A DNA stretch of 64,000 nt from Bacteroidales bacterium (GCA_045628985.1 JAZQQH010000065.1:181514-245513), one strand, 5' to 3'. Positions 2,646 through 19,497 are shown, counted from the stretch's first letter. Translations and numbers: made by a program. Notes: a model not told the origin generated them from the letters alone.

Positions 2646-2893
2646 GTTTCGTTTAAGGATTTGGACAAAGAAAAAGATTTGCTAGATATAAGCTCCGCTA
2701 GAGCCAGCCACACCAAGTAGTGACAAGTTCCTGACAAGTATATATAATATCGCGGGCAAATATACATTATTTATTTTAAAGATGCAAATTATGGGATTGA
2801 AACCTTATTGATGATAGCTGTTTTTTATGTTCTTTGTTATCGTTTTTTCATTTTCGGACGCTTTTTTGAATGTTAAAGAGGAACGGCGAAGGA

Positions 2894-3460
2894 CTAAAAC
2901 TGATCTTTATGCTTCTGATCGAACACAGCCAATTCAACAATCTCGATGGGTGTATCGACCTTCTTATATAGGTTGCTTACAGATGCCGGCTTTTTGTTGT
3001 CGCTAGTTGTTTCTAAAGGATACGGAATCTCCAGCAGATTGGAGAAAAGAGCGATAGCCAAATTGATGCTGTCCATCCGTGATATAGACTTCGAATAGGC
3101 ATGACAGGCTGAGTAGATTGTCGTTGTGAGATACTGCTTCGTGTAATGGGGATTGGTAGGGATCGACAACGACAAAGAAGGCAATTGCCGGCTCTTGAAG
3201 TACTCACGAATTGTCATAATGATAGATTCAAGTTCCTCCTTCTGGAACCGAATGAGCCGACGTGTCACCCAGGTACAGATAATCTCTACTCGCTCTGCCT
3301 CTATCATCATATTATTTGTCTTGTGCTCATGTATGATGGCCTCAAAGTTGTTCGTACTATGCGCATAGGCAACAGGTGTAATAACACGGACAGACACTGC
3401 TGGACGGATGCCCAACAGACAGCAAATTCTAGTGAAGATTGATTCGAGTAAATATGCCAT
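2894..3460 (-). CDS. Hypothetical protein
   Basis: 188-aa ORF with a minus-strand TATCTTTG promoter box near 3491-3498; no recognisable family. Confidence 0.55.
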   Translation of the reverse strand: MAYLLESIFTRICCLLGIRPAVSVRVITPVAYAHSTNNFEAIIHEHKTNNMMIEAERVEIICTWVTRRLIRFQKEELESIIMTIREYFKSRQLPSLSLSIPTNPHYTKQYLTTTIYSACHAYSKSISRMDSINLAIALFSNLLEIPYPLETTSDNKKPASVSNLYKKVDTPIEIVELAVFDQKHKDQF

Positions 3461-3591
3461 ATCGGTTAGCGATCATTTGAAATCGTGGTGCAAAGATATT
3501 GCAAAAAATATCAACCTCCAAATTTTTGTTTTTAACGTCATTTTAATGAATGCAATCTACTGCAATATAACATATTATTGAATTGATTGAA

Positions 3592-3648
3592 ATGTCCCAA
3601 AATGTCCCGCTGTCCCAAAGTGTCCCACCGTCTCAAAGTGTCCAAAAT
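3592..3648. repeat. Short tandem TGTCCCA-type repeats
   Basis: aatgtcccaaaatgtcccgctgtcccaaagtgtcccaccgtctcaaagtgtccaaaat. Confidence 0.6.
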
Positions 3649-4192
3649 CCATACTATCAGGCAGTCTCATCCGCCATCATAATCTTATCATCTGAGGATT
3701 GTCATGATAAGAACAATATACCGTCTACATTGACCCAGAATTATCAAAACGCGCGACTAAGACGATACAATGAAGAAAAGCTCGAAAATGCAATCTTATG
3801 CAATCTCAAGTGTTTTGATAATATTTTGTAAAGATTTTTCCAGATTTTGCGATTTGCCAATCGAGCCTTACAAAACAAGTCTTTTTCCGACAGCTTTTCC
3901 CCTCCTCGTCGAGCAATCCGAAATGCCTCTAAATTGTAATCCTCAACGGAAGAAATGCCTCCTTTGTAACAAATCCTTCATTCCCAACACACTTTTTTGT
4001 AACAAAAATTGGTCATATCGAAGAAAAGTCCCATCTTTGCACCGAACAAATCCTTATCGGTATTTATGGCAGCTTTACGCCTAATGATATTGGATTTGTA
4101 GTAAAACAGTAGTAAACAGACTTAACCCTTTGATTATTACCACTACTCATTTTCGAGGAGGTCAAGTGATTTCAACGAAATAAACAATAAAT

Positions 4193-4315
4193 AGCGGAGG
4201 CAAGTTCAGTCTTGTCTCCGCTTTTTTGTAGTATTAAATGTATGAGATTTGTCTTTTTTAGACCATTTGTCCGAAGCTCACCAATTTTTTTGGTAAGCTT
4301 CGGATAAATGGTTCT
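4193..4315. terminator. Two hairpins downstream of the RecQ-UvrD gene (terminator-like)
   Basis: agcggaggcaag...cttgtctccgct followed by a T-run; agaccatttgtccgaagct...agcttcggataaatggttct. Confidence 0.55.
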
Positions 4316-4374
4316 CTGTAGTAGACATTCTTATATCATTTCAGACATCATATTAGCAATACCTAATGTACTAA

Positions 4375-7300
4375 TCAAGATTTTTTTAGCGATAAATCTA
4401 CTAACAATACTGCATGCTCCTTTTCTTCTTTCGGAGCATCCTTGGGATGCCAAGCAACGATGAACCGAACAGATGAATCTACAACACAATATTGCTTCTC
4501 TGCCCATTGAGAAAGAACACTCTGCATCATCTGAGATAATTGAGCAACGGGCTTACCGGATCTTGTCTCATATAAATAATGATTTTCGTAACGCAACTTT
4601 TCTCCAGCCCTAAGTGAAAGAATATCAGCCTTACGAGGCTTGAAGAACCCAAGGTTCACATCTCTGTGGCTAAGCTGTAAAACTATCTCAGTAGGCATAT
4701 CATATACATTATAATCTGCCACCTTGTTGTCAATTGGCAAATTATCAAATAATGGACAATTTGTGTGTATAAACAACCGTTGTTTTGCTCGTGTTATACC
4801 AACGTAGTATCTACGTAAAACCTCAGCAGTAATGTGGTTAGGATCGGTAACTAGCAGATACACATCATCAAATTCGCGTCCTTTCGATTTATGAATGGTA
4901 GAAACGACCACATCAGCACCTGTCAAGTCACAAAAATCTTCAACAGATGCTTCAAATACATACTCCTTAAAGTCCATTAAGTATTTAGCTTTGTTCGTTT
5001 CTTCAAACAACTGAATACATCTTTGTAGATAATGAAGACTTCCCGAATCTTTATATGCAGAAAAAGTTCTGCTCTTTGCAGACTCCCAAACTTCGTCCGC
5101 AATAAGAGGAGTACGTGTCTCCTTCTCAATATATTTCATAAACAAACGAACCTCTGCAATATTCCAGAAACGGAATCCGTCCATACTCTGTATCAATTTA
5201 CTACTTAATCCATGCTTACGCAATAGGGCAACGAGTATGACAGCCTCTTCGTTTGTTTGTGTAAGTACACACATTGTTCCTTGACGCTTGCGATGTTGAA
5301 GCAGGTTCCGCAATAGCGGTTCATACATGAAAGATGATGAAGAATGATGTATCACACTAACCACTCCTTCTTCCTGACTCATCGAAACGATAGGTGTACC
5401 CTTCATTCTGCCTCGAAGACCCATAACAAAAGCATTAGCAAAGCTTACAATGTGCCGCGCACTTCGGTAGTTCTCTGTCATCTCGACAAATCTTCCCTCA
5501 GAATCCCTTAATAACTGAGCCATATATTTGGAATTCGAGCCTCGGAACTCATAGATGTTCTGATCATCATCACCTACCGCAATCACGCGCATCTCTTCAT
5601 TGGCAGTCATCAAAGCATGAACAAGAGCGTATTCCTCTGTACTCATATCCTGAGCTTCATCTATCACCAGTACCGTTTTTGCAATGCGATTCGGTTCTAC
5701 CTCTCCATCACTTATCATCTTTGCGGCACGTGATACTACGTCCTTTGCATCTTCCAGATTGCCGATTCTACCGAGGAGGTCAAAGCAATACGAATGAAAT
5801 GTCTTTATTTCTACGAAATGGGCAGCATTGCCAATGAGACCCATCAGACGTTGCTTGAACTCAATTGCGGCAGCACGAGAGAAGGTTAACATCAGCAACT
5901 GCTCATGTTTGACATCCTCAAGCATGAGCAACGATGCAAGCTTATGTACCAAAACACGCGTCTTACCACTACCAGGGCCAGCCGCAACAACAATGCATCG
6001 AGAATCCTTGTTTGAGATTATCTCCATCTGTTTTGGAGATAATGCACCAAAAAGTTGCTCGTATTTTCCAGGAGTAACGTTACGCTCTATCTCCTGAACG
6101 CGATTCCCTTTGAAATATTTCGAAACAAATCGCTTATAATCCATCTGGAAATAATCCTGTACGTACTGAAGAGCCGCATCATAATCCTTCACCATCAAGT
6201 TAGCATATTCACCTACGATGTGCACCTGTTGAATCTTTTGCTTATAGAACTCATTCAGCATGCGATAATCTTCTTGTTTATAACGGATACGATTATCCTT
6301 AACTCGACGGATATCCATGGCATTATAAAGCACTAGGAAGCCTCCTTCCAGCTTCAAAGCACCAATCTTTGAAAGATAGAGCAAGGCTTCTTCTACATCT
6401 TCCAATTGAATATCTTGTAATACATTAAAGAGATTCTGACCTTGCGACTTCAGTTCGTTGAGTAATTCAACAACTGAGAACTGTATGCCATTCTTCTGCG
6501 ACTCATCTGCTGTTGTCTTGGCTGCGAGTTTATACAGCCATTCTACAGAAAAACGACAAATTTCCAATCGTTTCTCAAAACGTTTGATAGTTGCTCCCAG
6601 ATCTGTCTGACGCTTCACTTCTAGATTATGTGCAGCATCTTCATTCTTACGAGTATACCCCTTTATTGTCAAGAAATAGAGCAAAGTACGGATATCTTTC
6701 TCTGTTGCAGAGAGAATACCTTCGTTCTGTGCATTATCATTTAGTTGTTTATAAGATATTCTAAGTACATCATCAGGAATATTATTCAATATAAAACGCT
6801 CCAATTTTGTGAAACGCTCAAGAAGTCTTTTTGACTTGTTCTCTGATTCACCAACATCATTGAGGTAAGCAGAAATATCCTTCGTATCAGCCAAAATGCC
6901 TTCCTGTCGCATTCGTTCCACAGCAGAAACGACTTCACACTTGTTCAAACCAAGAATGTCTGCCAAATAATCCACGCGAGACTCTGCCTCTGCATCTTGG
7001 GCCTTTGCTATGTGTTTTTGTGAAATCAGCGACTTGATAATACGGATAGCTTTCTCAACTTCGTCACTATCAAAAAGTAATGATTCAGTAATACGCTTAC
7101 GCGCTTCATCCATATTCTTTACAGTAATGCCAGTTGCATAGACATGAGGCACATTATTTCCACGTTCCAAATACCCAGCTTGCTCTAGCGCTGCCAATGC
7201 TGTACGGACACGAGTTTCAATATCAGAAACCGAATCATCCCATCCTGCCGTTCTTGCAATTTCCAAAGCCGAACAATAAGCACGCATGCGTTGACGAGTC

Positions 7301-9249
7301 AGTTCCTTTACAGCTTTCCATACCTGCTGAATTTCACTGATACTCAATTTTGTCTGATTGAGCAAAACAAAATGCTTGTCTAGGTCACCATCACTATAGA
7401 GGACAAAACATCGTGCTTCCAGATGAGGATCACGTCCTGCACGACCTGCTTCTTGAACGTAGTTTTCCAACGAATCGGAGATGTCATAATGCACTACCAA
7501 TCCCACATCACTCTTATCTACGCCCATGCCAAAGGCTGAGGTTGCTACAATAATGCGCACCTTATCGTTCATGAAAGCATCCTGATTTGCAATTTTTTCG
7601 TCTGCTTCCATCTGTCCATTGAAGGGCAAAGCTTTATAGCCATCACGAGTAAGTTTCTCAGCCAATTGTCTCGTGCGTTTTGTTCGAGACACGTAGACAA
7701 TAGTAGGACAATCACTTTCTGCTATTAGTGAGCGAAGTTTCGCGTACTTGTCTTCATCGGTATCTGCATGGATGACAGAGTATTGCAAATTTGTTCTTGA
7801 AGCAGTAGATGCAAATAGCTGAAGGTCAATGTCAAGTGACTGCTTGAAGTAATCACAAACATCCTGTATCACCTTCTGCTTTGCAGTAGCAGTAAAACAT
7901 GATACAGGAATAGCATCTTTGCAATGTTTCTTTTTCTGATACTCACTAATGAACTTACCGATATAAAGATAATCCACACGGAAGTCTTGGCCCCATGAGG
8001 AAAAACAATGTGCTTCGTCTATCACAAATCTTACTACATGACGAGCTAATAGAATTTTCTCTATAGTCTTAGAGCGAAGCATCTCGGGGGCAATATATAG
8101 CAGAGATGCATCACCGTCTTGCACACGCTGGATGGCTACAGAGCGGCTAATAGGGTCAAGCAAGCCATTGATTGTAACGGCATCCGTAATACCTCTTTCT
8201 GCGAGGTTATCCACCTGATCCTTCATTAACGATTGAAGAGGAGAGATAACCACAGTAAGACCATGTACAGAACGGCCCTCCATTAAAGCTGGCAACTGAA
8301 AAGTGAGAGATTTACCTCCTCCTGTTGGAAAGATAGCAAGCAAAGATTTTCCTTCTACAGCAGCTCTGGCAGCATTCTCTTGCAAAGGTTCTCCTTCATA
8401 AGTACGGAACTGATCGTAACCGAAGAATCTCTTCAGATTGTGAAGCACATCAAGATCTTTATTGCAATATGCACAACCTTCCTCACATCTAGTATATCGA
8501 AGAATTCTAACAATATTCTCCACATTGGGATAATTATGTAACACCCAAGATGGAGTAACAGAGCGATAATCAGTCGTATCAATCAGAGCCAACGCGTATG
8601 CAAGTTCGACCGGTTGTGAAGCAATCAAGTTTGCAATATCCACATGCTCGCAAATTTTACCTTTATACTCTGCACGAATCAATGCCGGAAGTTGAAGCTT
8701 GTCATCGACCTCTGCTCCTGCAAATAAAAGGAACCCATGAAACTCAGGTATGTCATAAAGCAAAGTTGCATAAATGATCTGCTTCTTATCTGAAAAAGCA
8801 CGCCACTGAGCTACCTCCTCCATTAGCAGATCTCTTGCTTTCTCACAATCGTTTACGGGATTGTTCATCTGCTCAGTAACCAGCTTATCATCTTTTAGCA
8901 AACGATGATAAGGGCGTTCTGGAAACAATAATGGCGAGACATATAACGTATCGACAAAAGCCCATTTAGGATTTTCTGCTCCAAAAAGATACTTCGCATC
9001 ATGATGAATGATATTATGGCCACACAGATAATCCACACCGTTAAGGAACCGTATTCCTGCATGTTTATCGGCAGAATGAAAAGTTGCGCCATCCCAACGC
9101 AATGCACCTATATCATGAATCTTTTTATCTTTCAAGCCGACTTCGCAATCCACTATAGCATAGTGGGAAGCATCTCGAGACACTTCCTGATGGGCTGCAA
9201 CAGAAACACTTCCGCTTACAGATTCAATGATTCTATTCCAGAAAGACAT
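4375..9249 (-). CDS. RecQ-family helicase fused to an N-terminal DEDD-type exonuclease-like domain and a C-terminal UvrD/REP (SF1) helicase
   Basis: IVDCEVG / CGHNIIHHD / DTL (exonuclease); PTGGGKS, DEAHC, WGQDFRVDY, QEAGRAGRD (RecQ); AGPGSGKT, DEAQD, VGDDDQNIYEFRG, STIHKSKGREFD, YVGITRAK (UvrD). Confidence 0.9.
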   Translation of the reverse strand: MSFWNRIIESVSGSVSVAAHQEVSRDASHYAIVDCEVGLKDKKIHDIGALRWDGATFHSADKHAGIRFLNGVDYLCGHNIIHHDAKYLFGAENPKWAFVDTLYVSPLLFPERPYHRLLKDDKLVTEQMNNPVNDCEKARDLLMEEVAQWRAFSDKKQIIYATLLYDIPEFHGFLLFAGAEVDDKLQLPALIRAEYKGKICEHVDIANLIASQPVELAYALALIDTTDYRSVTPSWVLHNYPNVENIVRILRYTRCEEGCAYCNKDLDVLHNLKRFFGYDQFRTYEGEPLQENAARAAVEGKSLLAIFPTGGGKSLTFQLPALMEGRSVHGLTVVISPLQSLMKDQVDNLAERGITDAVTINGLLDPISRSVAIQRVQDGDASLLYIAPEMLRSKTIEKILLARHVVRFVIDEAHCFSSWGQDFRVDYLYIGKFISEYQKKKHCKDAIPVSCFTATAKQKVIQDVCDYFKQSLDIDLQLFASTASRTNLQYSVIHADTDEDKYAKLRSLIAESDCPTIVYVSRTKRTRQLAEKLTRDGYKALPFNGQMEADEKIANQDAFMNDKVRIIVATSAFGMGVDKSDVGLVVHYDISDSLENYVQEAGRAGRDPHLEARCFVLYSDGDLDKHFVLLNQTKLSISEIQQVWKAVKELTRQRMRAYCSALEIARTAGWDDSVSDIETRVRTALAALEQAGYLERGNNVPHVYATGITVKNMDEARKRITESLLFDSDEVEKAIRIIKSLISQKHIAKAQDAEAESRVDYLADILGLNKCEVVSAVERMRQEGILADTKDISAYLNDVGESENKSKRLLERFTKLERFILNNIPDDVLRISYKQLNDNAQNEGILSATEKDIRTLLYFLTIKGYTRKNEDAAHNLEVKRQTDLGATIKRFEKRLEICRFSVEWLYKLAAKTTADESQKNGIQFSVVELLNELKSQGQNLFNVLQDIQLEDVEEALLYLSKIGALKLEGGFLVLYNAMDIRRVKDNRIRYKQEDYRMLNEFYKQKIQQVHIVGEYANLMVKDYDAALQYVQDYFQMDYKRFVSKYFKGNRVQEIERNVTPGKYEQLFGALSPKQMEIISNKDSRCIVVAAGPGSGKTRVLVHKLASLLMLEDVKHEQLLMLTFSRAAAIEFKQRLMGLIGNAAHFVEIKTFHSYCFDLLGRIGNLEDAKDVVSRAAKMISDGEVEPNRIAKTVLVIDEAQDMSTEEYALVHALMTANEEMRVIAVGDDDQNIYEFRGSNSKYMAQLLRDSEGRFVEMTENYRSARHIVSFANAFVMGLRGRMKGTPIVSMSQEEGVVSVIHHSSSSFMYEPLLRNLLQHRKRQGTMCVLTQTNEEAVILVALLRKHGLSSKLIQSMDGFRFWNIAEVRLFMKYIEKETRTPLIADEVWESAKSRTFSAYKDSGSLHYLQRCIQLFEETNKAKYLMDFKEYVFEASVEDFCDLTGADVVVSTIHKSKGREFDDVYLLVTDPNHITAEVLRRYYVGITRAKQRLFIHTNCPLFDNLPIDNKVADYNVYDMPTEIVLQLSHRDVNLGFFKPRKADILSLRAGEKLRYENHYLYETRSGKPVAQLSQMMQSVLSQWAEKQYCVVDSSVRFIVAWHPKDAPKEEKEHAVLLVDLSLKKS

Positions 9250-9269
9250 AAATAATAGTACAAACTACT

Positions 9270-11360
9270 TTATAAAAAGCCAAGTTTCTTAAGTCTTGAT
9301 CGAATGGAACCATTATTACGTTGCAGAATCGCACCAATCTCTGTAACAGACTTCCCTATTCGATGTAATCCGATGAGTGCTTGTTCTTCTTCTTCCGACC
9401 ATGGAGCATAAGCTTTCGCGTACATTTGCTTTTGTTTATCCATATAAGATAATACTTGTTTTGCACTTGACGGCTCATCAATAGCTGAAATTATGGCATC
9501 AGCAATTGGCAAATCTGAGCCTTGATTGCCCGGTGTTTCCTGAGAACGAGGAACTCCAATATGGTTGCAAATCAGATCAAGAAAACGTTTACCAAACTGA
9601 AGCTTTTTATGCTCACCAAGTCCATAGCAATTATCTAGCTGAAACATGCTAGTAGGCTTAACGGATGCCAACGACTGTAAAGATTTATCAGAGAGAACAA
9701 TGTAAGCAGGTTTGCCTATTTCTACAGAAATCGCTTTGCGGAGTTCCCAGAGTTTTTCAAACAGCGACTGATCTTCCGTCTGGGGTTCGAATGTAGATTC
9801 TAGCGAAACGATATTACGTTTACGTTTGGTGACACGAAGATCTTCTCTCACAATAACAGACAACTGAGCCTGCTTTTTCCCAAAAAGGACTTCCTCTCCA
9901 AGAGGTGTAACTTTCAAATGATTATCTTCGTCGTAAGCGATCTCGATGTAACCCATTTGCAACATCTGCAAAAGATACATATGCCAATCATTAGCTGGGA
10001 TATCAGAACCTGCACCAAAAGTCTTCAATTTATTAAACCCTTTACCAGAGATCAAAGGAGAATAACTTCCCTTTAGTATGTCAGTAGTTACCGAAAAACC
10101 GATCTGTTCATCTGTACGTTTGATAGCAGATAGCGCTTTCTGCACAATTATCGTTCCATCAAAATGTTGTGGAGGATTTTTACAAACATCACAATTACTG
10201 CAACTACATTCGGTTGCCTCACCAAAGTAGTTCAGCAGAATACGCCTACGGCATACCTGAGCCTCTGCATATTCCTGCATGCGTTTCAGCTTTTCAATAT
10301 TAATCTCACGTTGTCCACTCTCTTCTGCGAACTTCCGCAATGTTATCAAATCCTGTAAATTGTAAAAAAGAATTGTTTCTGTCGGCAATCCATCTCTACC
10401 ACCACGACCTATCTCCTGATAGAAACTCTCAATGCTCTTTGGAAGATTATTGTGTATGACAAAACGGATATTACTCTTGTCTATCCCCATTCCAAAAGCT
10501 ATCGTAGCACATATTACATTAATGCGGTCGTTGACGAAATCTTCTTGTACATGAGTTCGCTCTTCAGCAGACAACCCCGCATGGTAAACACCTACAGAAA
10601 TTCCATTCTGTTGGAGATCGGCGGCCATTTCTTCCGTTCCTTTCCTTGACAAACAGTAGATGATGCCACTTTCATTACTATGACGAGCAATAACCTCCAA
10701 TATGGTGCGCAAACGCTCCCTTTTTCTATACGCTTTACGAACATCAAGACTTAAATTCGGACGATCAAAACTTCCTACAAAAATCCTAGGATTTCTCAAC
10801 CTTAGCTGTTCAACAATATCCGCCTTTGTAACCTTATCCGCTGTTGCTGTCAATGCAAGAATAGGAATAGTAGGAAAACGGTTTTTCAACTGCCCTAATT
10901 GTGCATATTCTGGACGGAAATCGTGTCCCCATTGAGAAACACAATGCGCCTCGTCAATAGCGATCAAAGAAATCTTGACATAATGAAGCAACCATGGAAT
11001 CTCTGAAATTAGTCGTTCTGGCGAGATATAAAGAATTTTGATACTACCACATTGACAACGTTCTCGAATCGATTTATTTACAAGTTCATCATTACTGCTA
11101 TTTAATGCCTCTGCTTCAATGCCATTTGCTTGAAGAGAATCGACCTGATCTTTCATCAAAGATATGAGCGGAGACACAACAACAGTTGTTCCATCAAGCA
11201 TCAAAGCAGGAATCTGATAACAAATAGACTTTCCTCCACCAGTAGGCATCAAGACCAAAGCATCCTGACCAGAAACAACATAATTGATGATTTCTTTCTG
11301 GAGAGGACGGAATGAATCATATCCATAAACTGTTTTTAATAGTTGATATGCCTTATCCAT
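9270..11360 (-). CDS. recQ: ATP-dependent DNA helicase RecQ (RQC, HRDC, extra C-terminal HTH)
   Basis: MPTGGGKS, DEAHCVSQWGHDFRPEY, QEIGRGGRDG, CRRRILLNYFGE..CSNCDVC; HRDC-like LFEKLWELRK..PAYIVLSD. Confidence 0.93.
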   Translation of the reverse strand: MDKAYQLLKTVYGYDSFRPLQKEIINYVVSGQDALVLMPTGGGKSICYQIPALMLDGTTVVVSPLISLMKDQVDSLQANGIEAEALNSSNDELVNKSIRERCQCGSIKILYISPERLISEIPWLLHYVKISLIAIDEAHCVSQWGHDFRPEYAQLGQLKNRFPTIPILALTATADKVTKADIVEQLRLRNPRIFVGSFDRPNLSLDVRKAYRKRERLRTILEVIARHSNESGIIYCLSRKGTEEMAADLQQNGISVGVYHAGLSAEERTHVQEDFVNDRINVICATIAFGMGIDKSNIRFVIHNNLPKSIESFYQEIGRGGRDGLPTETILFYNLQDLITLRKFAEESGQREINIEKLKRMQEYAEAQVCRRRILLNYFGEATECSCSNCDVCKNPPQHFDGTIIVQKALSAIKRTDEQIGFSVTTDILKGSYSPLISGKGFNKLKTFGAGSDIPANDWHMYLLQMLQMGYIEIAYDEDNHLKVTPLGEEVLFGKKQAQLSVIVREDLRVTKRKRNIVSLESTFEPQTEDQSLFEKLWELRKAISVEIGKPAYIVLSDKSLQSLASVKPTSMFQLDNCYGLGEHKKLQFGKRFLDLICNHIGVPRSQETPGNQGSDLPIADAIISAIDEPSSAKQVLSYMDKQKQMYAKAYAPWSEEEEQALIGLHRIGKSVTEIGAILQRNNGSIRSRLKKLGFL

Positions 11361-11609: not shown

Positions 11610-12455
11610 TTATTCTGCTGAAGTTATTTGTTTGAGATCTGTTTGCACATTGTCAATCTCTGCATAGCCATTTACATGAAGAGCTTTGTCGAGAATATCA
11701 GTCTTGAATGCTACTCCTGTGCCATGACAAAGCATGGTGCCAATATGCAAAATTAACTTATAAAGCTGATGACCCTGGATGTGAAGGTATGCATTATCCT
11801 CATTAAGATGCTTGTTTACCATCACTTCTGAGATATGGAGGTCTTTCAACTTGTCACTAAACAAGTTTCTGACTTTTTCGACGTATGCATTTCCATTATT
11901 GACAAGGTCTTCTCTCTTTGGCTGAAGAGGCAAGCATAAATTGAACTTTGAAATGTTCCATTGCTGGTTCAACTCTGAGTTCTGGCTATAATGCACAAGG
12001 TAAAGAAGTGGCTTATACACAGCGGATGAAAGCTTCTGCAAAAAGATGCGAAAGTCAAATTCCGAATCATGAATCAATTCAGAAAAGCGAGACTGAAGAT
12101 GTTCTGCCTCACAGAAATGATTCTCCCAAGAATATGCGTATGTCTGAGCAATATTATTTTCGGAAGTTAATCCCTCCTCGCCTTTCAACTGGCGCAAATC
12201 GCTATCGATACAAACGAAAAACCGCTTTGTCAGATACGGCTTGTAACGCAGACATTGCTCACATCCACGAGCGTCATTGCCATTATCGTTTTTCGAATAG
12301 GTCAGAAATAGATAATTAGCTGGAGAGACGTTCTGAAGTTGATGCTTCCAGAAAAGAATATCCTCAGAATCCTCCAGATGCACGACAGCTTTAATGCTCC
12401 TGTCTCGTAATGGAAGATTACGATAGTATCGTGCTTGTTCTTCGATTCTATTCAT
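11610..12455 (-). CDS. DUF4435 TOPRIM-like nuclease (PARIS AriB-like)
   Basis: VHLEDSEDILFW (TOPRIM Glu), CIDSD (DxD), TYAYSWENH, QGH; directly downstream of an ABC ATPase. Confidence 0.8.
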   Translation of the reverse strand: MNRIEEQARYYRNLPLRDRSIKAVVHLEDSEDILFWKHQLQNVSPANYLFLTYSKNDNGNDARGCEQCLRYKPYLTKRFFVCIDSDLRQLKGEEGLTSENNIAQTYAYSWENHFCEAEHLQSRFSELIHDSEFDFRIFLQKLSSAVYKPLLYLVHYSQNSELNQQWNISKFNLCLPLQPKREDLVNNGNAYVEKVRNLFSDKLKDLHISEVMVNKHLNEDNAYLHIQGHQLYKLILHIGTMLCHGTGVAFKTDILDKALHVNGYAEIDNVQTDLKQITSAE

Positions 12456-12458
12456 ACG

Positions 12459-13202
12459 TTACTTGACTGGAGTGGTTACGTCTTCCATATAGATAATCTT
12501 ATCGCCCCATCCGTCACCAAAGATGCTTGGGGAATGTGTGGTGATGAAGTACTGAGCGTTAGGATTGAGCTTAACGAGAATATTGATCAACTCAAACTGC
12601 CAACTGATGTCAAGAGAGTTTTCTGGCTCATCAAGCAGTACAAAAGCATCCTGACCATCCAGAAGGAATACACGAAGCAGGATCAGAAGTATCTGCTTTT
12701 CTCCAGAAGAGAGGGCTTCAATGGATAAAATCTGATCACCAGATACGACATTGAACTTATTTCCTTCGATTTTGATATACTTTCCAGTACTTTTGAAAAG
12801 GTTGTTGATGGCCAAGCAGAAATCATCAATACGAGCTTTCATTTCTGCCTGCTTCTCAGCAGAAGCATCAATCATTGTCATTCGATAAGACATCATTGAC
12901 GGACCTGTCTTCATGTCGAACATATAATACTCAAGGTCTTGTGTCAATGCATTAGTTGTCTTACGTTTATCTCGCATGACGATGTCGTCAATAGAACGCA
13001 CATACACAACCTGACGCTTCTCCTCAAGGCCAAGATTGTTGTAAACTATCTTATAGATCTCATTTAAGAGAGTAGTTTTACCGCTACCATTTACACCAAC
13101 AATGATATTGACATCATCATTAGCGATAAAATGGACATCGTACTTATCCCAGAGTCGGGTCTTGATTTCTTTGATTTTGTTGTATGACATGATATCAGTC
13201 AT
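12459..13202 (-). CDS. ABC/AAA_21-type ATPase (PARIS AriA-like, short)
   Basis: GVNGSGKT Walker A, LSSGEKQ signature, LLDEPENSL Walker B, TTHSP. Confidence 0.85.
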   Translation of the reverse strand: MTDIMSYNKIKEIKTRLWDKYDVHFIANDDVNIIVGVNGSGKTTLLNEIYKIVYNNLGLEEKRQVVYVRSIDDIVMRDKRKTTNALTQDLEYYMFDMKTGPSMMSYRMTMIDASAEKQAEMKARIDDFCLAINNLFKSTGKYIKIEGNKFNVVSGDQILSIEALSSGEKQILLILLRVFLLDGQDAFVLLDEPENSLDISWQFELINILVKLNPNAQYFITTHSPSIFGDGWGDKIIYMEDVTTPVK

Positions 13203-13389
13203 TTGATTTCTTGCTGTTCAAAATAAAATGCACGCTATTATATTTACGCGTGCAAATATAATCATTTTTCGTCAATATCAAGAAGGGACTACTAAATTTC
13301 TGCAATAATTCCACACTTTAATAGCATTTCCTTCACTTTTTTGCAATATTATTGCCAAATTGGAGATGCAATGTAAAACACAAATTCAA

Positions 13390-13830
13390 TCGAGTTAACA
13401 CTTAACGCTTAACGCTTTTGCGAGATAGGCAATAGTGTTAAGCGTTAACGTTAACTTGATGCGACTGTAGATTGTTATAATGTCAAATCTATATTTCTTC
13501 GAGTTTACACTTTACGCTTTACGTTTTTACGTTTACATCTGCTATTGTCCGGGCATCCCCAAAAGTGTAAAGCGTAAAACGTAAAGTGTAAAGTGTATGT
13601 AATTCTGCATTTACTATTGACAAATAGGTACTGTCGTAAACTATATATTCATTTATATAAATCGCGCGCGATTATATATATAATTTTCGATTAAGATTAA
13701 TAGAATAAGTAATAGGAAGAAAAAAAGAAGTCCCTAAAGGAATGGTAGCCGCAGATGTGTATCATGTCAATGTGAGTTTCTATCGAGTTAACACTTTACA
13801 CTTTACGCTTTACGTTTTTACGTTGCACAT
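13390..13830. repeat. Heptamer repeat arrays (TTWACRC) in direct and inverted orientation
   Basis: Blocks beginning TCGAGTTWACACTTWAC at 13390, 13499 and 13783; inverted blocks near 13434-13456 and 13561-13597. Confidence 0.75.
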
Positions 13831-13916: not shown

Positions 13917-14080
13917 CGCCATTCAGAGGAGTCGAAGCTTGTACCGAATGCGGGCAATACTTATGATAACGGCCGAGCATAAGTATTGATTAACGTCTGG
14001 CATTAGTTAAGATCAACTACCCTACCTCAACCAAATAAGGTATGTTCGAGAGGACTGTGCTTGTAACGAACCTATTTTTT
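13917..14080 (+). ncRNA. Candidate structured ncRNA or orphan leader
   Basis: TATCTTTG box at 13906-13913; hairpins caatacttatg/cataagtattg, tacct/aggta, gttcg/cgaac followed by a T-run; no ORF in the track. Confidence 0.45.
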
Positions 14081-14277
14081 GATACTTATACATAATATTG
14101 TAGTGTTTTACGACTATCATAAAACACTGCAAAAATAGCGAAAATTATAAAATATAACAATTGCTCTCTTTTTTATGTGGCAACATATTACTTCTCATCG
14201 CTACTCTTTCTATTATCAAGCGAAAAATATCATTATTGAGCACACGCTCCAACTTTTTTATAAAAAAATACATTTTA

Positions 14278-14309
14278 CCTGTAACATTTCTATTTTCTGC
14301 ATACTATAA
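14278..14309 (+). promoter_or_regulatory. Putative ECF sigma promoter, copy 1
   Basis: CCTGTAACATTTC-N7-TGCATACTATAA; near-identical copy at 17720. Confidence 0.7.
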
Positions 14310-14356
14310 GAATGTAAGCAAACAACAATTCAAAAAAAATCATTAGCATCAACATC

Positions 14357-15148
14357 ATGAAGAAAATGAACGCAATGCTCGCTGTGGTCGAGCAAAGTGC
14401 ATCTCAATGCACAAAGAACCTGAAAGAACTTGCCACCAGTTTCAAAAAGAACTCTGGCGATTTCTTGGGTGTGAAGAAAACCTATAGGGCTCGTGAGGGA
14501 TATGCAGACGATCCGTCTAAACGAGGATACAAGCGTGTGGTATCAACTGTAGATGAGAAGATTGAGGCTCTACAAAAGGAGCTGACGGCACATCTCACCG
14601 ACCTGTTCTCCATAGAACGCACCAATAGTATTGGAGCTGCAAAGGTGCCACTCATAGTCGAAGGACGCAACTTCGGTGAAATGACTGCTATTGAACTTAT
14701 GCGTTTAAAGTCGTTCCTTATGCGAGAGGAGTTTGAACAGATATACAATGCCATTCCTGTCCGCTCTGATGCAGAGGATTGGACACGCACAACAGATTCC
14801 GATTACGAAGGACGAGAGATTTGGGAGACTCCTCTGATAAAAGGTGTAGCGAAGACCTCAGAGAACGAGGAGGTTATCCTTAAGGATCCAAATCTGAATC
14901 CTGAGAATCTTCCTGCCAACTATGTTGCAAAAACGACCGTCAAACGCAAGACGGTAGAAGTGGGCGACTATACTGCTCAGACATTCTCCGGTGAGTGGAA
15001 TCAGCGTCAGCGCTCTGAACTACTCCGCCGTCGTGCCACATTGCTCAAAGCTGTTATTGAGGCTCTCAAAATAGTAAATGATGTAGAGACGGTAGCATCT
15101 GAGATACAAGTAGAATCTCTTCTCAAATACATCCATTACGGAAAATAA
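14357..15148 (+). CDS. Conserved uncharacterised, probably helical/coiled-coil protein (candidate RNA-binding partner of the downstream ncRNA)
   Basis: 263-aa ORF. The pattern (MNAMLAV, FLGVKKTY, TNS..A.V..IVEG, ELMRL, IPV, VGDYT..FSG, ELLRR..LLKAV) resembles a family I recall from Actinobacteria, cyanobacteria and phages (possibly DUF7873; not verified). Confidence 0.8.
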   Translation: MKKMNAMLAVVEQSASQCTKNLKELATSFKKNSGDFLGVKKTYRAREGYADDPSKRGYKRVVSTVDEKIEALQKELTAHLTDLFSIERTNSIGAAKVPLIVEGRNFGEMTAIELMRLKSFLMREEFEQIYNAIPVRSDAEDWTRTTDSDYEGREIWETPLIKGVAKTSENEEVILKDPNLNPENLPANYVAKTTVKRKTVEVGDYTAQTFSGEWNQRQRSELLRRRATLLKAVIEALKIVNDVETVASEIQVESLLKYIHYGK

Positions 15149-15150
15149 TC

Positions 15151-15460
15151 GGGCAACGACCCAACAGGATAATTGACTAAAGCTTCACTTTTACGCATTA
15201 GCATCATGCCGCACCAATATAGTCATTGCCCTTACAGCGCGCTGTCTATATGGCACAAAGCATCAGCATTGAGTCAAAAGCATTGGCTTTAGCCTTACCG
15301 GTCGAAGACTGCTGGAATACGTGATTCATGAGACCCTGAAGATTGCAAGTTCGAATCTTGCATCCGCCTCAATCTTTATACTACATGGCGGATTGGTGCA
15401 ATGGTCAACACATCAGGAACATAGCCTTAGCATCATAGCAGCAGATACATTCGACAAAAC
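15151..15460 (+). ncRNA. Structured ncRNA containing a circularly permuted tRNA-like (YrlA/Y RNA-like) module
   Basis: T arm gcaag-TTCGAAT-cttgc (15345-15361) precedes acceptor stem atccgcc/ggcggat (15362-68/15387-93) and D arm (15396-15411). Closed by cctga/tcagg. Outer stems gtcgaa/ttcgac and ctgctg/cagcag. 5' domain gggcaacgac/gtcattgccc. Confidence 0.75.
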
Positions 15461-15497
15461 TCCATCCCTGTTCATGAAGGAAAAGAGCGAACAGGGA

Positions 15498-15568
15498 GGG
15501 CGGGTAGCTTAGTGGCAAAGCACACGACTGCAGATCATGACACATAGGTTCGATTCCTATCCCGCCCA
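15498..15568 (+). tRNA. tRNA with GCA anticodon (Cys-like), atypical
   Basis: Cloverleaf: gggcggg/cccgccc, gctt/aagc, cacga/tcatg (one mismatch) with loop ctGCAga, atagg-TTCGATT-cctat; discriminator A, no encoded CCA. Confidence 0.8.
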
Positions 15569-15645
15569 CGAATAATAATTCCAAAGCGAAGACAATGGAC
15601 CTTTAGAACAAAATCTTAGAAAGAATAGAATTAACGTTTTCCAAT

Positions 15646-16074
15646 ATGAAGAACAATGACAAAGTGCAACAAGCACTCCAATGGCTAGATGATGAGGGTT
15701 GGAGTGAACTGATTGACCCCAGATGGACACTTGAGGTTTATCATGAACTCCAAACGTCCAAACTTAATCTCAAAGATGAAGATATTCGTGAGACACTTGA
15801 TATTGTGATTTACGATAAACCCGACTACAATCCTGCAAATAATGAACGGCTCGTTCGCGGAATGACCGAGGACAGTCCAAAATACAAAGACTATATCTGC
15901 AAGATGCTGCAATGTAAGAAGGATGCAGAAACTGAAGATCCCAAACATTCTGGTTTCTTTGACCTGAGCAAACCTCACGAGAAGGCGGATGAGATTCTTT
16001 GCAATCTGCTCATGGATTTAGGGTTCAAAGATATTGTGGACGTTTATAAATCCTTTGACAAATGGTATGCTTAA
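15646..16074 (+). CDS. Hypothetical protein, phage-type C-terminal motif
   Basis: 142 aa; HEKADEILCNLLMDLGF...KWYA end resembles small phage hypotheticals (from recall). Confidence 0.7.
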   Translation: MKNNDKVQQALQWLDDEGWSELIDPRWTLEVYHELQTSKLNLKDEDIRETLDIVIYDKPDYNPANNERLVRGMTEDSPKYKDYICKMLQCKKDAETEDPKHSGFFDLSKPHEKADEILCNLLMDLGFKDIVDVYKSFDKWYA

Positions 16075-16098
16075 GCCCCCACCTTTAATTTCACAAAA

Positions 16099-16461
16099 AT
16101 GATAAAATATGATTCAATTGAGAACATCCTTCAGACATTGAAAGAAAAGTTCTCCCGTCAAGAAAAAGAAATTGAACGTCTCAGACTTGAGAATGCGAAG
16201 CTCAAGAACGGAATTTGGCAGGAAGAAGAAATGGCTTGGCTCAAAGCTGAATATGACAGAATGAAAGAAGAATATCATAGAGGGTTCTCTATCTCAAAAG
16301 AGGAGAAAGCAATAATAAATGAGTTCATAAATCAGCATAAAGGCTACTATGGTGCCATAGGCGGAGGTTTCTCATACCAGTTCATTCCGACTTCCATTGG
16401 CATTATTGGTACCATCATTGCCTCAAATGGTGATAAGTTAGTATTTAGAGAACTAGGATAA
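16099..16461 (+). CDS. Hypothetical protein (coiled coil + GAIGG motif), phage-type
   Basis: 120 aa; GAIGGGFSYQFIPTSIG motif. Confidence 0.7.
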   Translation: MIKYDSIENILQTLKEKFSRQEKEIERLRLENAKLKNGIWQEEEMAWLKAEYDRMKEEYHRGFSISKEEKAIINEFINQHKGYYGAIGGGFSYQFIPTSIGIIGTIIASNGDKLVFRELG

Positions 16462-16468
16462 TGAGAAC

Positions 16469-16702
16469 ATGCCCATGAGACTTCAATACAAAATAATCTT
16501 ATGCTTATTGGCATTACCAATAAACATCCTGATTTTGAAAATTGTTTGGAATTGGATTATACCATCCATTACCGGATGGAAAGAAATCAATTATCTGCAA
16601 GCGTGTGGCTTGTTTGTTCTATACTGGAGTATTCATGGAATGGTGCGTTTTACTTTCAACACACGGCAAAAGAGACAAAGTGTTTCGTTTCGCCAAATGT
16701 AA
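16469..16702 (+). CDS. Small membrane protein
   Basis: Two hydrophobic segments flanking WNWIIPSITGWKEINYLQACGL. Confidence 0.6.
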   Translation: MPMRLQYKIILCLLALPINILILKIVWNWIIPSITGWKEINYLQACGLFVLYWSIHGMVRFTFNTRQKRQSVSFRQM

Positions 16703-16715
16703 AATATGGCAATAC

Positions 16716-17636
16716 TTATAATGACAATTGATCATAAGCAGGACAAAAGTTAAGACGTTTATAGAAAGTCCACAAGACTGAAGGTACTGATTTCTGATAC
16801 TCTATGACTGTGGTGTCATGAACCATTCCTCCCCTCTTCTCCTTTCGTGAGAGTCGAAGTTCTGCCACCGCCTCAGCATTGGGGAGCTGTAATAATGTCT
16901 CTTCGTAATAGGCAATCAGGCAATTGTATAAATCGGAGAAATGATCATTGATGTCAGATGCTATCGAAAGATATTCAGATCCATATGATAATACTTGATT
17001 CCCCTGTTGCAACAGACTCAAATTATGCCTCATTTGAGCCTTGATTCGATACACGATGACTCTATATGCTTCATAAGATATTCCCATTGCCTGGGTAATG
17101 TCTTTCTCTGGTAGAGCTTTGCTTTTGTCCAAAATAGTCAGAAGCCAGCGCAACAAGATAAATCTTTCTCGTGGTTGTAGCACCTGAAGCATGTAGGCCA
17201 ACACATGAGAAAAAGTCTCAATCATACGTTCGGTTTGCAACAAAGGAAGACCATCACTACAAGCATTAATCTCGTCAGCATACTCAACATAAAACTCCCT
17301 TAATTTGGTTTCAGAAGCAACTCTATTAGCCAGATAATTCCGGAAGGTCGAACGGACCCATGTCACAAAAACATCTCGATGCTGCACGCCTAACAAAATT
17401 TTGTAAGGCTGGCTATTGTCTCCATCTTTTCCCTCACGCAAATACAGGAAGAAATCTTCCACTACATCTTCATAATCATCAAGAATCTCTTCTCTAAAGG
17501 CATCAAACTTCTCTCGCAACTGCGGCTTCAGCCTTTCGTGCAACAACCAGTACATTGCTTCGTCTGCTTGCTCTCGATGAGCAAGGATGAAGTCGAGAAA
17601 TTCGGATAAAGGTATATACTGGAAGTTCGTAGCCAT
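16716..17636 (-). CDS. ECF-type sigma-70 factor with C-terminal extension
   Basis: Region 2-like EDVVEDFFLYL...FVTWVRSTFRNYL; region 4-like LQPRERFILL...EKDITQAMGISYEAYRVIVYRIK; about 100 extra C-terminal residues. Confidence 0.75.
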   Translation of the reverse strand: MATNFQYIPLSEFLDFILAHREQADEAMYWLLHERLKPQLREKFDAFREEILDDYEDVVEDFFLYLREGKDGDNSQPYKILLGVQHRDVFVTWVRSTFRNYLANRVASETKLREFYVEYADEINACSDGLPLLQTERMIETFSHVLAYMLQVLQPRERFILLRWLLTILDKSKALPEKDITQAMGISYEAYRVIVYRIKAQMRHNLSLLQQGNQVLSYGSEYLSIASDINDHFSDLYNCLIAYYEETLLQLPNAEAVAELRLSRKEKRGGMVHDTTVIEYQKSVPSVLWTFYKRLNFCPAYDQLSL

Positions 17637-17719
17637 GAGGAGTATCTTTGTTTATTCTGCCGCGAATTTACGTATTATTTTGGAGAAATATCGTAAATAA
17701 TCAAAAAATATTGATTTGG

Positions 17720-17751
17720 CCTATAACATTTCGATTAATTGCATACTATAA
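17720..17751 (+). promoter_or_regulatory. Putative ECF sigma promoter, copy 2
   Basis: CCTATAACATTTC-N7-TGCATACTATAA, same spacing as the copy at 14278. Confidence 0.7.
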
Positions 17752-17842
17752 AGATGAAAATAGCCAAAAGAAAATATCATTGGCTATCTTTTCCAAACAA
17801 TAATAATATAAAGAAATTGAAAAAGAAAGTAGCATCATTGTT

Positions 17843-18178
17843 ATGAGTAATAAGACATGTAAGATATGCGGTTACGATGACGTAATTGAGGGTAAAGATA
17901 TTTGTAAATTCTGCGAAAATGCAAAAGCATCCATTAGCGATGTGGAAATGCGTAAGAGTGTTTCTGTTGATTTGCATAAGTTCTCCTCTCTATTCTCAAA
18001 AGAAGGAGATTACGTAGAGGTGACAGAATGGACGAACGGAGAGGGTTTTGACATCTGCTTGTGTACCTCTGAAACGAACCATAAAAGTAAAACGCTGTCA
18101 TTAACCAGAGATGAGCTGGAAGCTATTTATAATGCACTGGTTCTTCTGGGGATGGACTTCATAACGTACAAAAAATAA
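17843..18178 (+). CDS. Hypothetical protein with N-terminal CxxC..CxxC
   Basis: CKIC...CKFC; DYVEVTEWTNGEGFDI motif. Confidence 0.7.
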   Translation: MSNKTCKICGYDDVIEGKDICKFCENAKASISDVEMRKSVSVDLHKFSSLFSKEGDYVEVTEWTNGEGFDICLCTSETNHKSKTLSLTRDELEAIYNALVLLGMDFITYKK

Positions 18179-18184
18179 AACACG

Positions 18185-18556
18185 ATGAAGAAAGAATATT
18201 TCATAGGCGACAGACGCAAATATGGTATTACGCTGATGGAAACCATCCGGCTTGAGGAAAGATTACCTGGAAGGGAAATCTACAAAGTGAAATGGACAAC
18301 GCTCACAAACTATGATGGGTTGAATATTCAGGCCTTTCCAATGGTTAGGACAGATGGGGAGTTTTACGACTTTACTCCTATTACTAAAGCCGAATACAAC
18401 GAAATTCTGACCGTCTTAAGAAGTGTCAGTGAGGAACTAAAACCATTACTTGAAGTCAAAAAGCAGATTGATAATAAGATATGTGAGACACATAGAAAGG
18501 TATGGAAGAAATTCCCCCAAATAAGTATTCAATCTCAAAACACTATTATTCAATGA
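18185..18556 (+). CDS. Hypothetical protein
   Basis: 123-aa ORF 6 bp after the previous stop codon. Confidence 0.6.
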   Translation: MKKEYFIGDRRKYGITLMETIRLEERLPGREIYKVKWTTLTNYDGLNIQAFPMVRTDGEFYDFTPITKAEYNEILTVLRSVSEELKPLLEVKKQIDNKICETHRKVWKKFPQISIQSQNTIIQ

Positions 18557-18561
18557 TATCT

Positions 18562-19497
18562 TTATTTGTTCTTTCTCACAAAGAAACCTGCAGCAATACT
18601 TCCTGAGAAGTTGTGCCAAGCAGAGAAGATGGCACCGGGAACTGCAGCCATCGGATAGATGGCGAAATGAGTGGCGGCAAGAGAGGTCGCAAGGCCAGAG
18701 TTCTGCATACCTACCTCTATGGAGATAGCCGTACTTTTAGCTTTGCTCATTCCTGACAATCTGGCCAATGTGAATCCTAAGACGAGGCCTGACAGATTGT
18801 GCAGAATAACAGCTACAGCAACGATCAAGCTACAGCCAAGGATGTTGGAAGCGTTGTGCGATACCACGATACCGATAATGGCAGCGACAGAGAGTGTGGA
18901 GATCATCGGGAGCAATGGGGTAACCTTCTCTGTCTGAGCTTTGAACCAGTGGCTTACGACAAATCCAGCAATGATCGGCAGAATAACCACCTGCACAATA
19001 CTCAGGAACATGGCATACGGATTTACCTCGATATTCTCTCCTGCCAGAAGAAGCACAAGGAGCGGTGTGATCAAAGGCGCTAACATCGTGGATACCGCAG
19101 TCATTCCTACCGACAAGGCAATGTCTCCTTTGGCCAGATAACACATCACATTTGAGGCGGTTCCTCCAGGGCAACATCCCACCAGAATCACACCCAATGC
19201 AAGCTCTTGAGGCAAAGACAAGAGCTTACAAAGCAGCCATGCTACCAGCGGCATGATGATGAACTGAGATAGCTCTCCGATGAGAATATCTTTCGGACGT
19301 CTGAGTACAGGGACGAAATCCGCAGGCTTCAGTGTCAGGCCCATGCCAAACATAACGATACCCAAGAGTGGCGTCACCGTAGAGGTGTTCATCCAGAGGA
19401 AACTCCCTGGGATGAAAAGAGCGATGGCCGTCACTATCACAACAAGAATCGTGATATGCGAAGAGATAAGTTCGGAAAGATGATATAGCTGTTTCAC
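18562..19497 (-). CDS. Bile acid:sodium symporter (BASS) family transporter
   Basis: MFGMGLTL, GCCPGGTASN, IEVGMQNSGLA, FSAWHN. Confidence 0.92.
   Translation of the reverse strand: MKQLYHLSELISSHITILVVIVTAIALFIPGSFLWMNTSTVTPLLGIVMFGMGLTLKPADFVPVLRRPKDILIGELSQFIIMPLVAWLLCKLLSLPQELALGVILVGCCPGGTASNVMCYLAKGDIALSVGMTAVSTMLAPLITPLLVLLLAGENIEVNPYAMFLSIVQVVILPIIAGFVVSHWFKAQTEKVTPLLPMISTLSVAAIIGIVVSHNASNILGCSLIVAVAVILHNLSGLVLGFTLARLSGMSKAKSTAISIEVGMQNSGLATSLAATHFAIYPMAAVPGAIFSAWHNFSGSIAAGFFVRKNK

Follow-up and report, generated by a model that had tools for sequence, protein, structure and literature searches.

A 64,000-nucleotide (nt) stretch of DNA from a Bacteroidales bacterium (hereafter, the window; its own genome is 88.7% complete) carries, at positions 14279-15569, a core module of four parts: a promoter-like motif, a gene for a protein of the Pfam family DUF7873, a structured RNA of about 325 nt, and a tRNA. 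The best explanation for this locus is that it is a compact copy of a module of large gut phages, which sits on a small island with its own sigma-like regulator. For the RNA, the best reading is a divergent, YrlA-type Y RNA, for which DUF7873 would be a new and more constant partner. We hold this reading as a whole (a phage-derived, Y-RNA-like tRNA-mimic module that forms a ribonucleoprotein, or RNP, with DUF7873) with moderate confidence.

The sequence-only reading of the window had picked out a 263-amino-acid (aa) protein behind the first of two copies of a promoter-like motif. This protein can now be placed in DUF7873 (116.7 bits against a cut-off of 27, with residues 1-260 covered; Table 1). 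Its AlphaFold2 model has a predicted local distance difference test (pLDDT) score of 88.5, and Foldseek found no match for it in PDB or BFVD at E ≤ 0.001. In a wide VIA-align search, the best Z score was only 6.4, to helical bundles. There is no family for DUF7873 beyond Pfam in PHROGs, NCBIfam, or PADLOC, and a literature search found no publication on it. A search of the ESM Atlas returned DUF7873 clusters only, mostly viral, and the 15 phage records that DUF7873 matches are all from Lak megaphages of Prevotella.

We gathered relatives of the module via DUF7873: 4 of 39 genomes of the same genus, 11 loci on genome contigs, and 41 loci on IMG/VR viral contigs (28-269 kb). We also built a covariance model, R1, of the permuted cloverleaf that lies within the RNA. 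That homologs of the protein should be collected and the sequence downstream of them modeled had been suggested from the sequence; when this was done, a conserved RNA was found. R1 scores at least 51 bits in 53 of the 56 DUF7873 sources, and each match is on the same strand as DUF7873 and downstream of it. (Of the other three, L011 lacks downstream sequence, L032 is a deletion variant, and L043 scores 40.5 bits.) The RNA is kept across relatives whose DUF7873 is 38-98% identical, including those where it is only 38-54% identical, so the RNA is tightly tied to the protein with which the sequence-only reading had paired it. Among the 39 genomes of the genus, R1 matches of at least 84 bits are found in exactly the 4 with DUF7873, each beside that gene. 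Also, a profile of the spacer from near relatives matches the same sequence right after DUF7873 in many phage loci, and a tRNA lies 275-535 nt after the DUF7873 stop codon in 44 of 50 loci (in the window, the spacer between stop codon and tRNA is 349 nt). In a Bacillota metagenome-assembled genome (MAG; L014, 4783-6166), the RNA is 1.4 kb downstream of DUF7873, so something has been inserted between them.

The reverse search, by RNA pattern in IMG/VR, gave 33 loci, 27 of which have DUF7873 directly upstream. The other 6 are on contigs of 313-553 kb, and DUF7873 is present elsewhere in both of the two that could be searched. Lak megaphages keep the RNA and DUF7873 unlinked, so that DUF7873 stands alone. 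All genomes tested, namely 4 megaphage records and 4 genomes of the genus, have both the RNA and DUF7873. Two kinds of R1 match were set aside. First, matches of 20-49 bits are tandem-tRNA artefacts that combine halves of neighboring tRNAs. Second, a match of 52.8 bits in genome G013 is not the module but a run of odd, tRNA-like units (about 5100-5800 on the minus strand of contig C123). These tandem units, which are unrelated to the module, each have about 50 nt inserted into the anticodon region and are not called by ARAGORN.

The conserved RNA runs from about 15173 to 15496. Reading the sequence 5' to 3' gives the anticodon-stem 3' strand, a variable region, the T arm, a 7-nt acceptor 3' strand, U73-C74-N-A76, a loop, a 7-nt acceptor 5' strand, the D arm, and the anticodon-stem 5' strand. 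This permuted cloverleaf parses in 40 of the 41 unique modules (the exception is the deletion variant L032), and the loop joining the acceptor ends ranges from 18 to 245 nt across them. The topology that these sequences imply is a long bulged stem that ends in a complete tRNA body, with the acceptor ends joined by a variable loop and with the stem in place of the anticodon loop.

The fold covaries. In an alignment of 19 sequences, 94.2% of cells are paired, double changes occur in 17 of 21 pairs, and 0 of 500 shuffles reach the observed value; controls in which the pairing was slid have only 35-44% of cells paired. An alignment of 24 sequences gives a similar picture (88.8% of cells paired, double changes in 19 of 22 pairs, and again 0 of 500 shuffles). 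Compensatory changes are present in all four arms. Of the 24 sequences, 22 are complementary at the tertiary 15:48 pair (CG in 12, UA in 8), which alternates between G:C and A:U. The covariation of the arms together with this tertiary pair indicates an L-shaped tRNA body and not a chance hairpin. The permuted tRNA mimic with YrlA-type topology that had been proposed from the sequence is thus conserved and covarying. In contrast, the limits given for it (15151-15460) have shifted, and the entire spacer is of ordinary stability: its minimum free energy has a z score of -0.96, and 17 of 100 shuffles fold equally well. The spacer RNA has zero matches in Rfam.

The rest of the RNA is also structured. 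RNAalifold found no structure in the 5' half when given a gappy MAFFT alignment, and for this half we used anchored sub-alignments instead. Helix P1 is 96.7% paired, with double changes in 3 of 5 pairs, and the strands of P-a and P-b diverge between lineages yet remain complementary. The 3' hairpin stems of relatives differ as well but are complementary, as judged by eye. In this hairpin (15466-15496 in the window), the stem covaries, and an AGGA(U/A) motif in the loop is conserved between lineages. The single-stranded parts of the RNA are rich in AGC triplets at an exact spacing of 6 nt: the distance from one AGC to the next is 6 in 82 cases across 25 RNAs, where about 0.1 or fewer are expected per RNA.

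In phages, the gene order is Ro60-like gene, DUF7873, tRNA-mimic RNA, and tRNA array, and the presence of the Ro60-like gene in this order places the RNA with the Y RNAs. The Ro-like protein is about 600 aa long, contains Pfam domains DUF2828 and DUF7788, and is encoded directly upstream of DUF7873 in 25 of the 41 viral loci. The top 12 PDB matches to its AlphaFold model in Foldseek are all Ro60/TROVE proteins (E from 6.6e-7 to 3.7e-5) and include those of Xenopus, human, Deinococcus (Rsr), and Thermus phage phiLo. With VIA-align, the top 10 are again all Ro60/TROVE (Z of 11.7-13.9), over residues 47-577, which form a helical ring and a vWA domain. Judging from the model, the phage neighbor is predicted to have the Ro60 fold (TROVE ring plus vWA). 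Sequence searches miss it: Pfam TROVE (PF05731) matches none of 5 phage records, though L017, L022, and L053 hold the Ro-like gene, and a profile of the Ro-like protein has 0 matches among PDB sequences. As the Pfam model misses the Ro-like gene, we reject the absence of Ro from phages that it would imply.

Searches for the Ro-like gene found it neither in Lak-A1, Lak-B5, and two other phage records nor in four other island hosts (78-89% complete where given), which also show no Ro60. TROVE and RtcB had been noted as absent from the window, and a search of its whole genome, at 88.7% completeness, found neither; DUF2828 and the Ro-like profile had no match there either. Because the Ro-like gene was not found in some phages and island hosts, DUF7873 is the more constant partner. 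The idea that the locus is an invention free of Ro is not borne out, however: it is a phage-derived module whose viral relatives often have the Ro60-fold gene next to DUF7873. The system derives from phage Ro-type loci and is not without Ro ancestry. Two phage loci have other RNA-related genes nearby. In L017, a tmRNA (106-643, 81.3 bits) and a RAGATH-34 RNA (1871-1975, 76.7 bits, over the gathering score) lie just upstream of the Ro-like gene. In L038, from a phage without the Ro-like gene, RlaP (PF10127, an RNA-repair-associated nucleotidyltransferase) is encoded upstream of DUF7873 (2168-3421).

The tRNA(GCA) that had been recognized after the RNA was found by both ARAGORN and Rfam. Its discriminator is A (15568). 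Discriminator U73 is an identity element of canonical tRNA-Cys; the tRNA of the window, unlike canonical tRNA-Cys, lacks it, and 9 of the 14 tRNA(GCA) genes in the relatives' loci have it. Between copies of the module, the anticodon of this tRNA varies while its body is kept. The eight island copies have GCA (three), TGT (two), GAT, CCA, and AGT, and phage copies with one shared body have TTC, TTT, GTT, CTT, ATT, and ACT. Such anticodon changes between near-identical copies point to selection on tRNA identity. In L017, L022, L037, and L053, the first tRNA has an odd anticodon arm (a 6-bp stem, a 9-nt loop, or no U33). The module usually heads a tRNA array in phages.

The acceptor strand of the mimic is followed by invariant U73, C74, and A76. 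Of 306 unique real tRNA genes in loci L003-L057, 293 have C74 and 194 have A76, and position 75 is mostly A or T. The encoded 3' ends thus look like a partial CCA, in which C74 and often A76 are encoded and C75 mostly is not. Since C74 and A76 of the mimic match those of the real tRNA genes, the mimic is probably in the same 3' maturation pathway. By analogy with known processing, 3' maturation and RNase P would probably open its variable loop.

The two motif copies that had been noted around the sigma-like gene belong to a 56-nt repeat (14262-14317 and 17704-17759) that is 77% identical between copies. The motif core, CTGTAACATTTC-N11-12-TACTATWAG, is upstream of DUF7873 in 8 of 8 island loci (the window and, counting only loci with upstream sequence, 7 others, L006-L012). 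The gene between the copies had been called an ECF-like (extracytoplasmic function) sigma factor. It does match TIGR02937 (sigma70-ECF) over profile positions 26-165 of 165, but the score of 25.6 bits is below the cut-off of 42.9, and it has no Pfam match; its match to the sigma factor family phrog_351 is weak (E = 0.015). The sub-threshold TIGR02937 score and the lack of a Pfam match leave "ECF-like" plausible but unproven. Homologs of this gene flank DUF7873 in island loci. As the sequence-only reading had it, then, the RNA stands behind a promoter motif that it shares with the sigma-like regulator, and both travel with the module in islands. Chromosomal copies of DUF7873 are 86-98% identical across several Bacteroidales MAGs. 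The islands are homologous as far as the tRNA 3' end, after which their cargo is mosaic. The small ORFs (open reading frames) of the cargo lie where they were first described, and homologs of the 111-aa ORF are found in L005, L009, L013, and L016.

Table 1. Features of the module and its island (coordinates within the window)
Feature	Position	Strand	Evidence or detail
Promoter-like motif copy 1, 5' of DUF7873	14279..14310	+	CTGTAACATTTC-N11-TACTATAAG; within 56-nt repeat D2
DUF7873 protein, 263 aa	14357..15148	+	Pfam PF25283, E 1.8e-33
RNA 5' domain	15173..15300	+	P1 (15173-15178 with 15272-15277) around AGC repeats and an inner hairpin
Long bulged stem bearing the permuted tRNA-like domain	15301..15455	+	Predicted fold; P-a 15301-15306/15450-15455, P-b 15309-15314/15439-15444
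Circularly permuted cloverleaf	15335..15417	+	R1, 90.3 bits
Cloverleaf order, first half			Anticodon-stem 3' strand 15335-15339; T arm 15345-15361; acceptor 3' strand 15362-15368; U73 15369
Cloverleaf order, second half			Loop 15369-15386; acceptor 5' strand 15387-15393; D arm 15396-15411; anticodon-stem 5' strand 15413-15417
3' hairpin, AGGAA in loop	15466..15496	+	Predicted fold; ends 1 nt before tRNA
tRNA, anticodon GCA	15498..15569	+	ARAGORN; Rfam tRNA, 66.7 bits
Three small ORFs (142, 120, 77 aa), island cargo	15646..16702	+	77-aa ORF matches phrog_705 and phrog_2169
Sigma-70/ECF-like regulator, 306 aa	16716..17636	-	TIGR02937 E 7.9e-6, under cut-off
Promoter-like motif copy 2, 5' of two small ORFs	17721..17753	+	
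Two small ORFs (111, 123 aa) behind motif copy 2	17843..18556	+	

Upstream of DUF7873 is a 1.1-kb stretch without ORFs, in which 13360-13830 is dense with direct and inverted, iteron-like repeats resembling ACACTTTACGCTTTACG; close relatives have a second sigma-like gene at the matching place. Beyond this, a PARIS pair adjoins the island on the minus strand (11610-13202), with AriB at 11610-12455 (PADLOC, E = 7.7e-116) and AriA at 12459-13202 (PADLOC, E = 2e-108). PARIS cleaves tRNA, and a phage tRNA can neutralize PARIS, so this neighborhood may matter. More conflict-type genes lie farther out on the minus strand (1017-11360): a Schlafen AlbA_2/Fic-like gene (1017-2645), a 1624-aa double helicase (4375-9249), and a RecQ/DpdF-like helicase (9270-11360).

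From the structure of the RNA, its conservation, its linkage to DUF7873, and the Ro-like neighbor, all of which are observed, we infer how the module might be transcribed, processed, bound, and used. The promoter motif would drive DUF7873, the RNA, and the tRNA as one transcript, from which RNase P and the 3' tRNA-processing enzymes would free the tRNA. The same enzymes would probably open the acceptor loop of the mimic, as reported for the YrlA of M. smegmatis, to leave a two-piece mimic with a CCA end. DUF7873 would then bind the mimic RNA to form an RNP, which the Ro60-like protein would join in many phages. This RNP could act on the quality of tRNA or other RNA, or on tRNA supply, in the conflict between phage and host over tRNAs. 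A bolder proposal is that no Ro60 is needed: DUF7873, the mimic, and the tRNA of changeable anticodon would be sufficient as a module on their own. The mimic would be in two pieces with a CCA end and perhaps an amino acid, DUF7873 would read the AGC hexamers, and the anticodon would set which tRNA is protected, replaced, or targeted. We consider this proposal doubtful. If it is true, such a programmable module would be a tool in the phage-host tRNA contest that is exchanged among megaphages, smaller phages, and chromosomal islands.

Several observations weigh against a Y-RNA-like RNP with DUF7873. First, neither Foldseek nor VIA-align found a recognizable RNA-binding fold in DUF7873, and the confidence of the Ro-like model is moderate (pLDDT of 68, template-modeling score of about 0.3). 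Second, Lak-A1 and Lak-B5 have the full RNA, followed by tRNA-Lys(UUU), 160-180 kb away from DUF7873. This separation implies that co-transcription is not required and that linkage alone cannot prove a complex. Third, the Rfam model of YrlA (RF02553) has no match in window positions 14000-19000 at E up to 10. Among eight relatives' loci it matched one module RNA (in L039) at 35.5 bits, so the YrlA covariance search that had been suggested from the sequence did not reach the gathering score of 69. Fourth, all 8 island RNAs have the Ro-binding motif of YrlA, GNCGAAN0-1G as given in the YrlA passages of PMC4201824, but it occurs in 1 of 12 other RNAs and in none of the 20 that adjoin the Ro-like gene; it therefore does not look like a feature of the family. 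Finally, contigs from RNA libraries cover parts of the module in 2 runs, and DNA runs have the same depth pattern, which makes these contigs uninformative about transcription or the ends of the RNA.

The separation in Lak phages would also fit another explanation, in which tRNA and tmRNA transcripts carry the RNA as a leader or punctuation element that works in cis. Shaped like a tRNA, it would attract RNase P and the 3' enzymes and so separate or stabilize the upstream mRNA and the downstream tRNAs. DUF7873 would then be a mere syntenic neighbor. Lak-A1 has the RNA and tRNA-Lys by themselves, preceded by an AT-rich region and 179 kb away from DUF7873. In L053, a second permuted tRNA-like element with discriminator A (7645-7734; 48.9 bits by R1 and 33.8 bits by Rfam YrlA) lies directly before the phage tmRNA gene (7754-8243). 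The shared 3' trailer of the mimic and real tRNA genes and the position of the module at the head of tRNA arrays fit a leader as well. However, a simple processing signal has no need for the conserved 5' AGC domain, the long bulged stem, or the 3' hairpin, nor does it account for the RNA and DUF7873 occurring together in all the megaphage records and all the genomes of the genus that were tested. The Ro60-fold gene that adjoins 25 of 41 loci also points to an RNP. We regard a leader as unlikely.

A second alternative is a decoy role for the RNA. As a tRNA body that lacks the anticodon loop, it could soak up tRNA-targeting nucleases or tRNA-binding defense proteins, while the neighboring tRNA replaces the one that is attacked. 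This would explain why, in island and phage copies alike, the tRNA that follows keeps its body and changes its anticodon. The PARIS system next to the island, with its cleavage of tRNA, and the RlaP RNA-repair gene of L038 are in keeping with it. But PARIS adjoins the island only in this window (L012 has other neighbors), the decoy has no known nuclease target, and why it would need DUF7873 or the Ro-like protein is left unexplained. A decoy seems to us quite unlikely.

A third alternative draws on the two-piece tmRNA (Rfam RF04321), whose gene order is permuted in that the T arm and acceptor 3' strand precede the acceptor 5' strand. The module RNA could be a similar, aminoacylated adaptor: its permuted acceptor, with a 7-bp stem and a conserved U73, would be charged, and GCN-UUA-GCN-UAA repeats would be read as an Ala-Leu-Ala tag. 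The AGC repeats do recur every 6 nt, and many copies have a stop in phase after them. We dropped the coding reading (Ala-Leu-Ala-stop) because the stop is not kept in L009, L012, or L013; in L007, it comes after one codon. The acceptor 3:70 pair is GC, CG, or AU only and never G3:U70, ARAGORN finds no tmRNA at the module, and neither Rfam tmRNA nor tmRNA_permuted matches the module RNA. Also, the D arm and anticodon stem are complete, unlike those in the tRNA-like domain of tmRNA. An adaptor of this kind is very improbable. Lastly, that the element is made of chance or decayed tRNA fragments without function, such as attachment-site remnants, would suit the ordinary folding energy of the spacer and the end of island homology at the tRNA 3' end, but is already contradicted by the compensatory changes in all four arms, by the covarying tertiary pair, and by conservation of the element where DUF7873 is only 38-54% identical, and is hardly conceivable.

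The module RNAs make up a large and diverse family with YrlA topology, which is found in gut phages, Lak megaphages included, and in islands of Bacteroidales. This family is constantly accompanied by one protein of unknown fold and, in some lineages only, by a Ro60-like gene that standard models miss. DUF7873 becomes a candidate partner protein for a tRNA mimic, which can be tested directly, and the islands are a natural case of a Y-RNA-like system that persists without Ro. This should be relevant to those who study Y RNAs, the biology of phage tRNAs, or defense.

How does the module compare to known systems? GOLLD and ROOL are large, ornate RNAs that are found beside phage tRNA genes. The module RNA resembles them as a structured non-coding phage RNA beside tRNA arrays, but it is much smaller, includes a tRNA mimic, has a dedicated protein neighbor, and has no Rfam match. 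It shares with the two-piece tmRNA the permuted order, with an intervening piece that is presumably removed, and differs from it in having neither the Ala identity pair nor a conserved tag frame and in the completeness of its D arm and anticodon stem.

A closer comparison is with phage Ro60 systems. Phage Ro60 with Y-RNA-like partners is known from Thermus phage phiLo (PMC12135203) and, as ROT/TROVE, from jumbo phages (PMC7824862). In their passages on phage Ro60, these sources propose that it and the adjoining RNA genes act in RNA repair or in escape from host defense (PMC12135203; PMC7824862). Many phage copies of our module likewise encode a predicted Ro60-fold protein with adjoining RNA genes. 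The differences are that the Ro-like protein here consists of DUF2828 and DUF7788 and is missed by Pfam TROVE, that a third component, DUF7873, lies between the Ro-like gene and the RNA, and that the RNA, at the head of a tRNA array, contains a permuted cloverleaf in full. We found no description of this module in the literature on phage permuted tRNA or phage Ro60/Y RNA, and the phage YrlA tables of Chen et al. 2014, which were outside that search, may bear on its novelty.

The closest comparison is with YrlA itself. The passages on YrlA in Chen et al. 2014 (PMC4201824) give the order T arm, acceptor-like stem-loop, D arm, and describe the M. smegmatis YrlA as having a 7-bp acceptor stem, being cleaved by RNase P, and receiving CCA. 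In these passages, bacterial Y RNAs are known almost exclusively beside canonical Ro60, and no partner of the tRNA-like domain is named (PMC4201824). Relative to this description, the module RNA has the same order of T arm, acceptor, and D arm, on a stem in which its 5' and 3' flanks pair, and keeps tertiary tRNA pairs; its acceptor stem is also 7 bp. The window RNA has GNCGAAG on the 5' strand of the stem, where GGUCGAAG fits the Ro-binding motif, a motif that the RNAs beside the Ro-like gene lack; in phages a Ro60-fold gene is nearby. In contrast to YrlA, the module RNA is about three times longer (about 325 nt versus the 114 positions of the Rfam model) and has an extra 5' domain with AGC hexamer repeats as well as a 3' hairpin. 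No Ro was found in this host; the constant neighbor is DUF7873 instead of Ro, and a tRNA with a changeable anticodon always follows. With these likenesses and differences, the module appears to belong, as a new branch, to the Ro/Y-RNA family of RNA-care systems.

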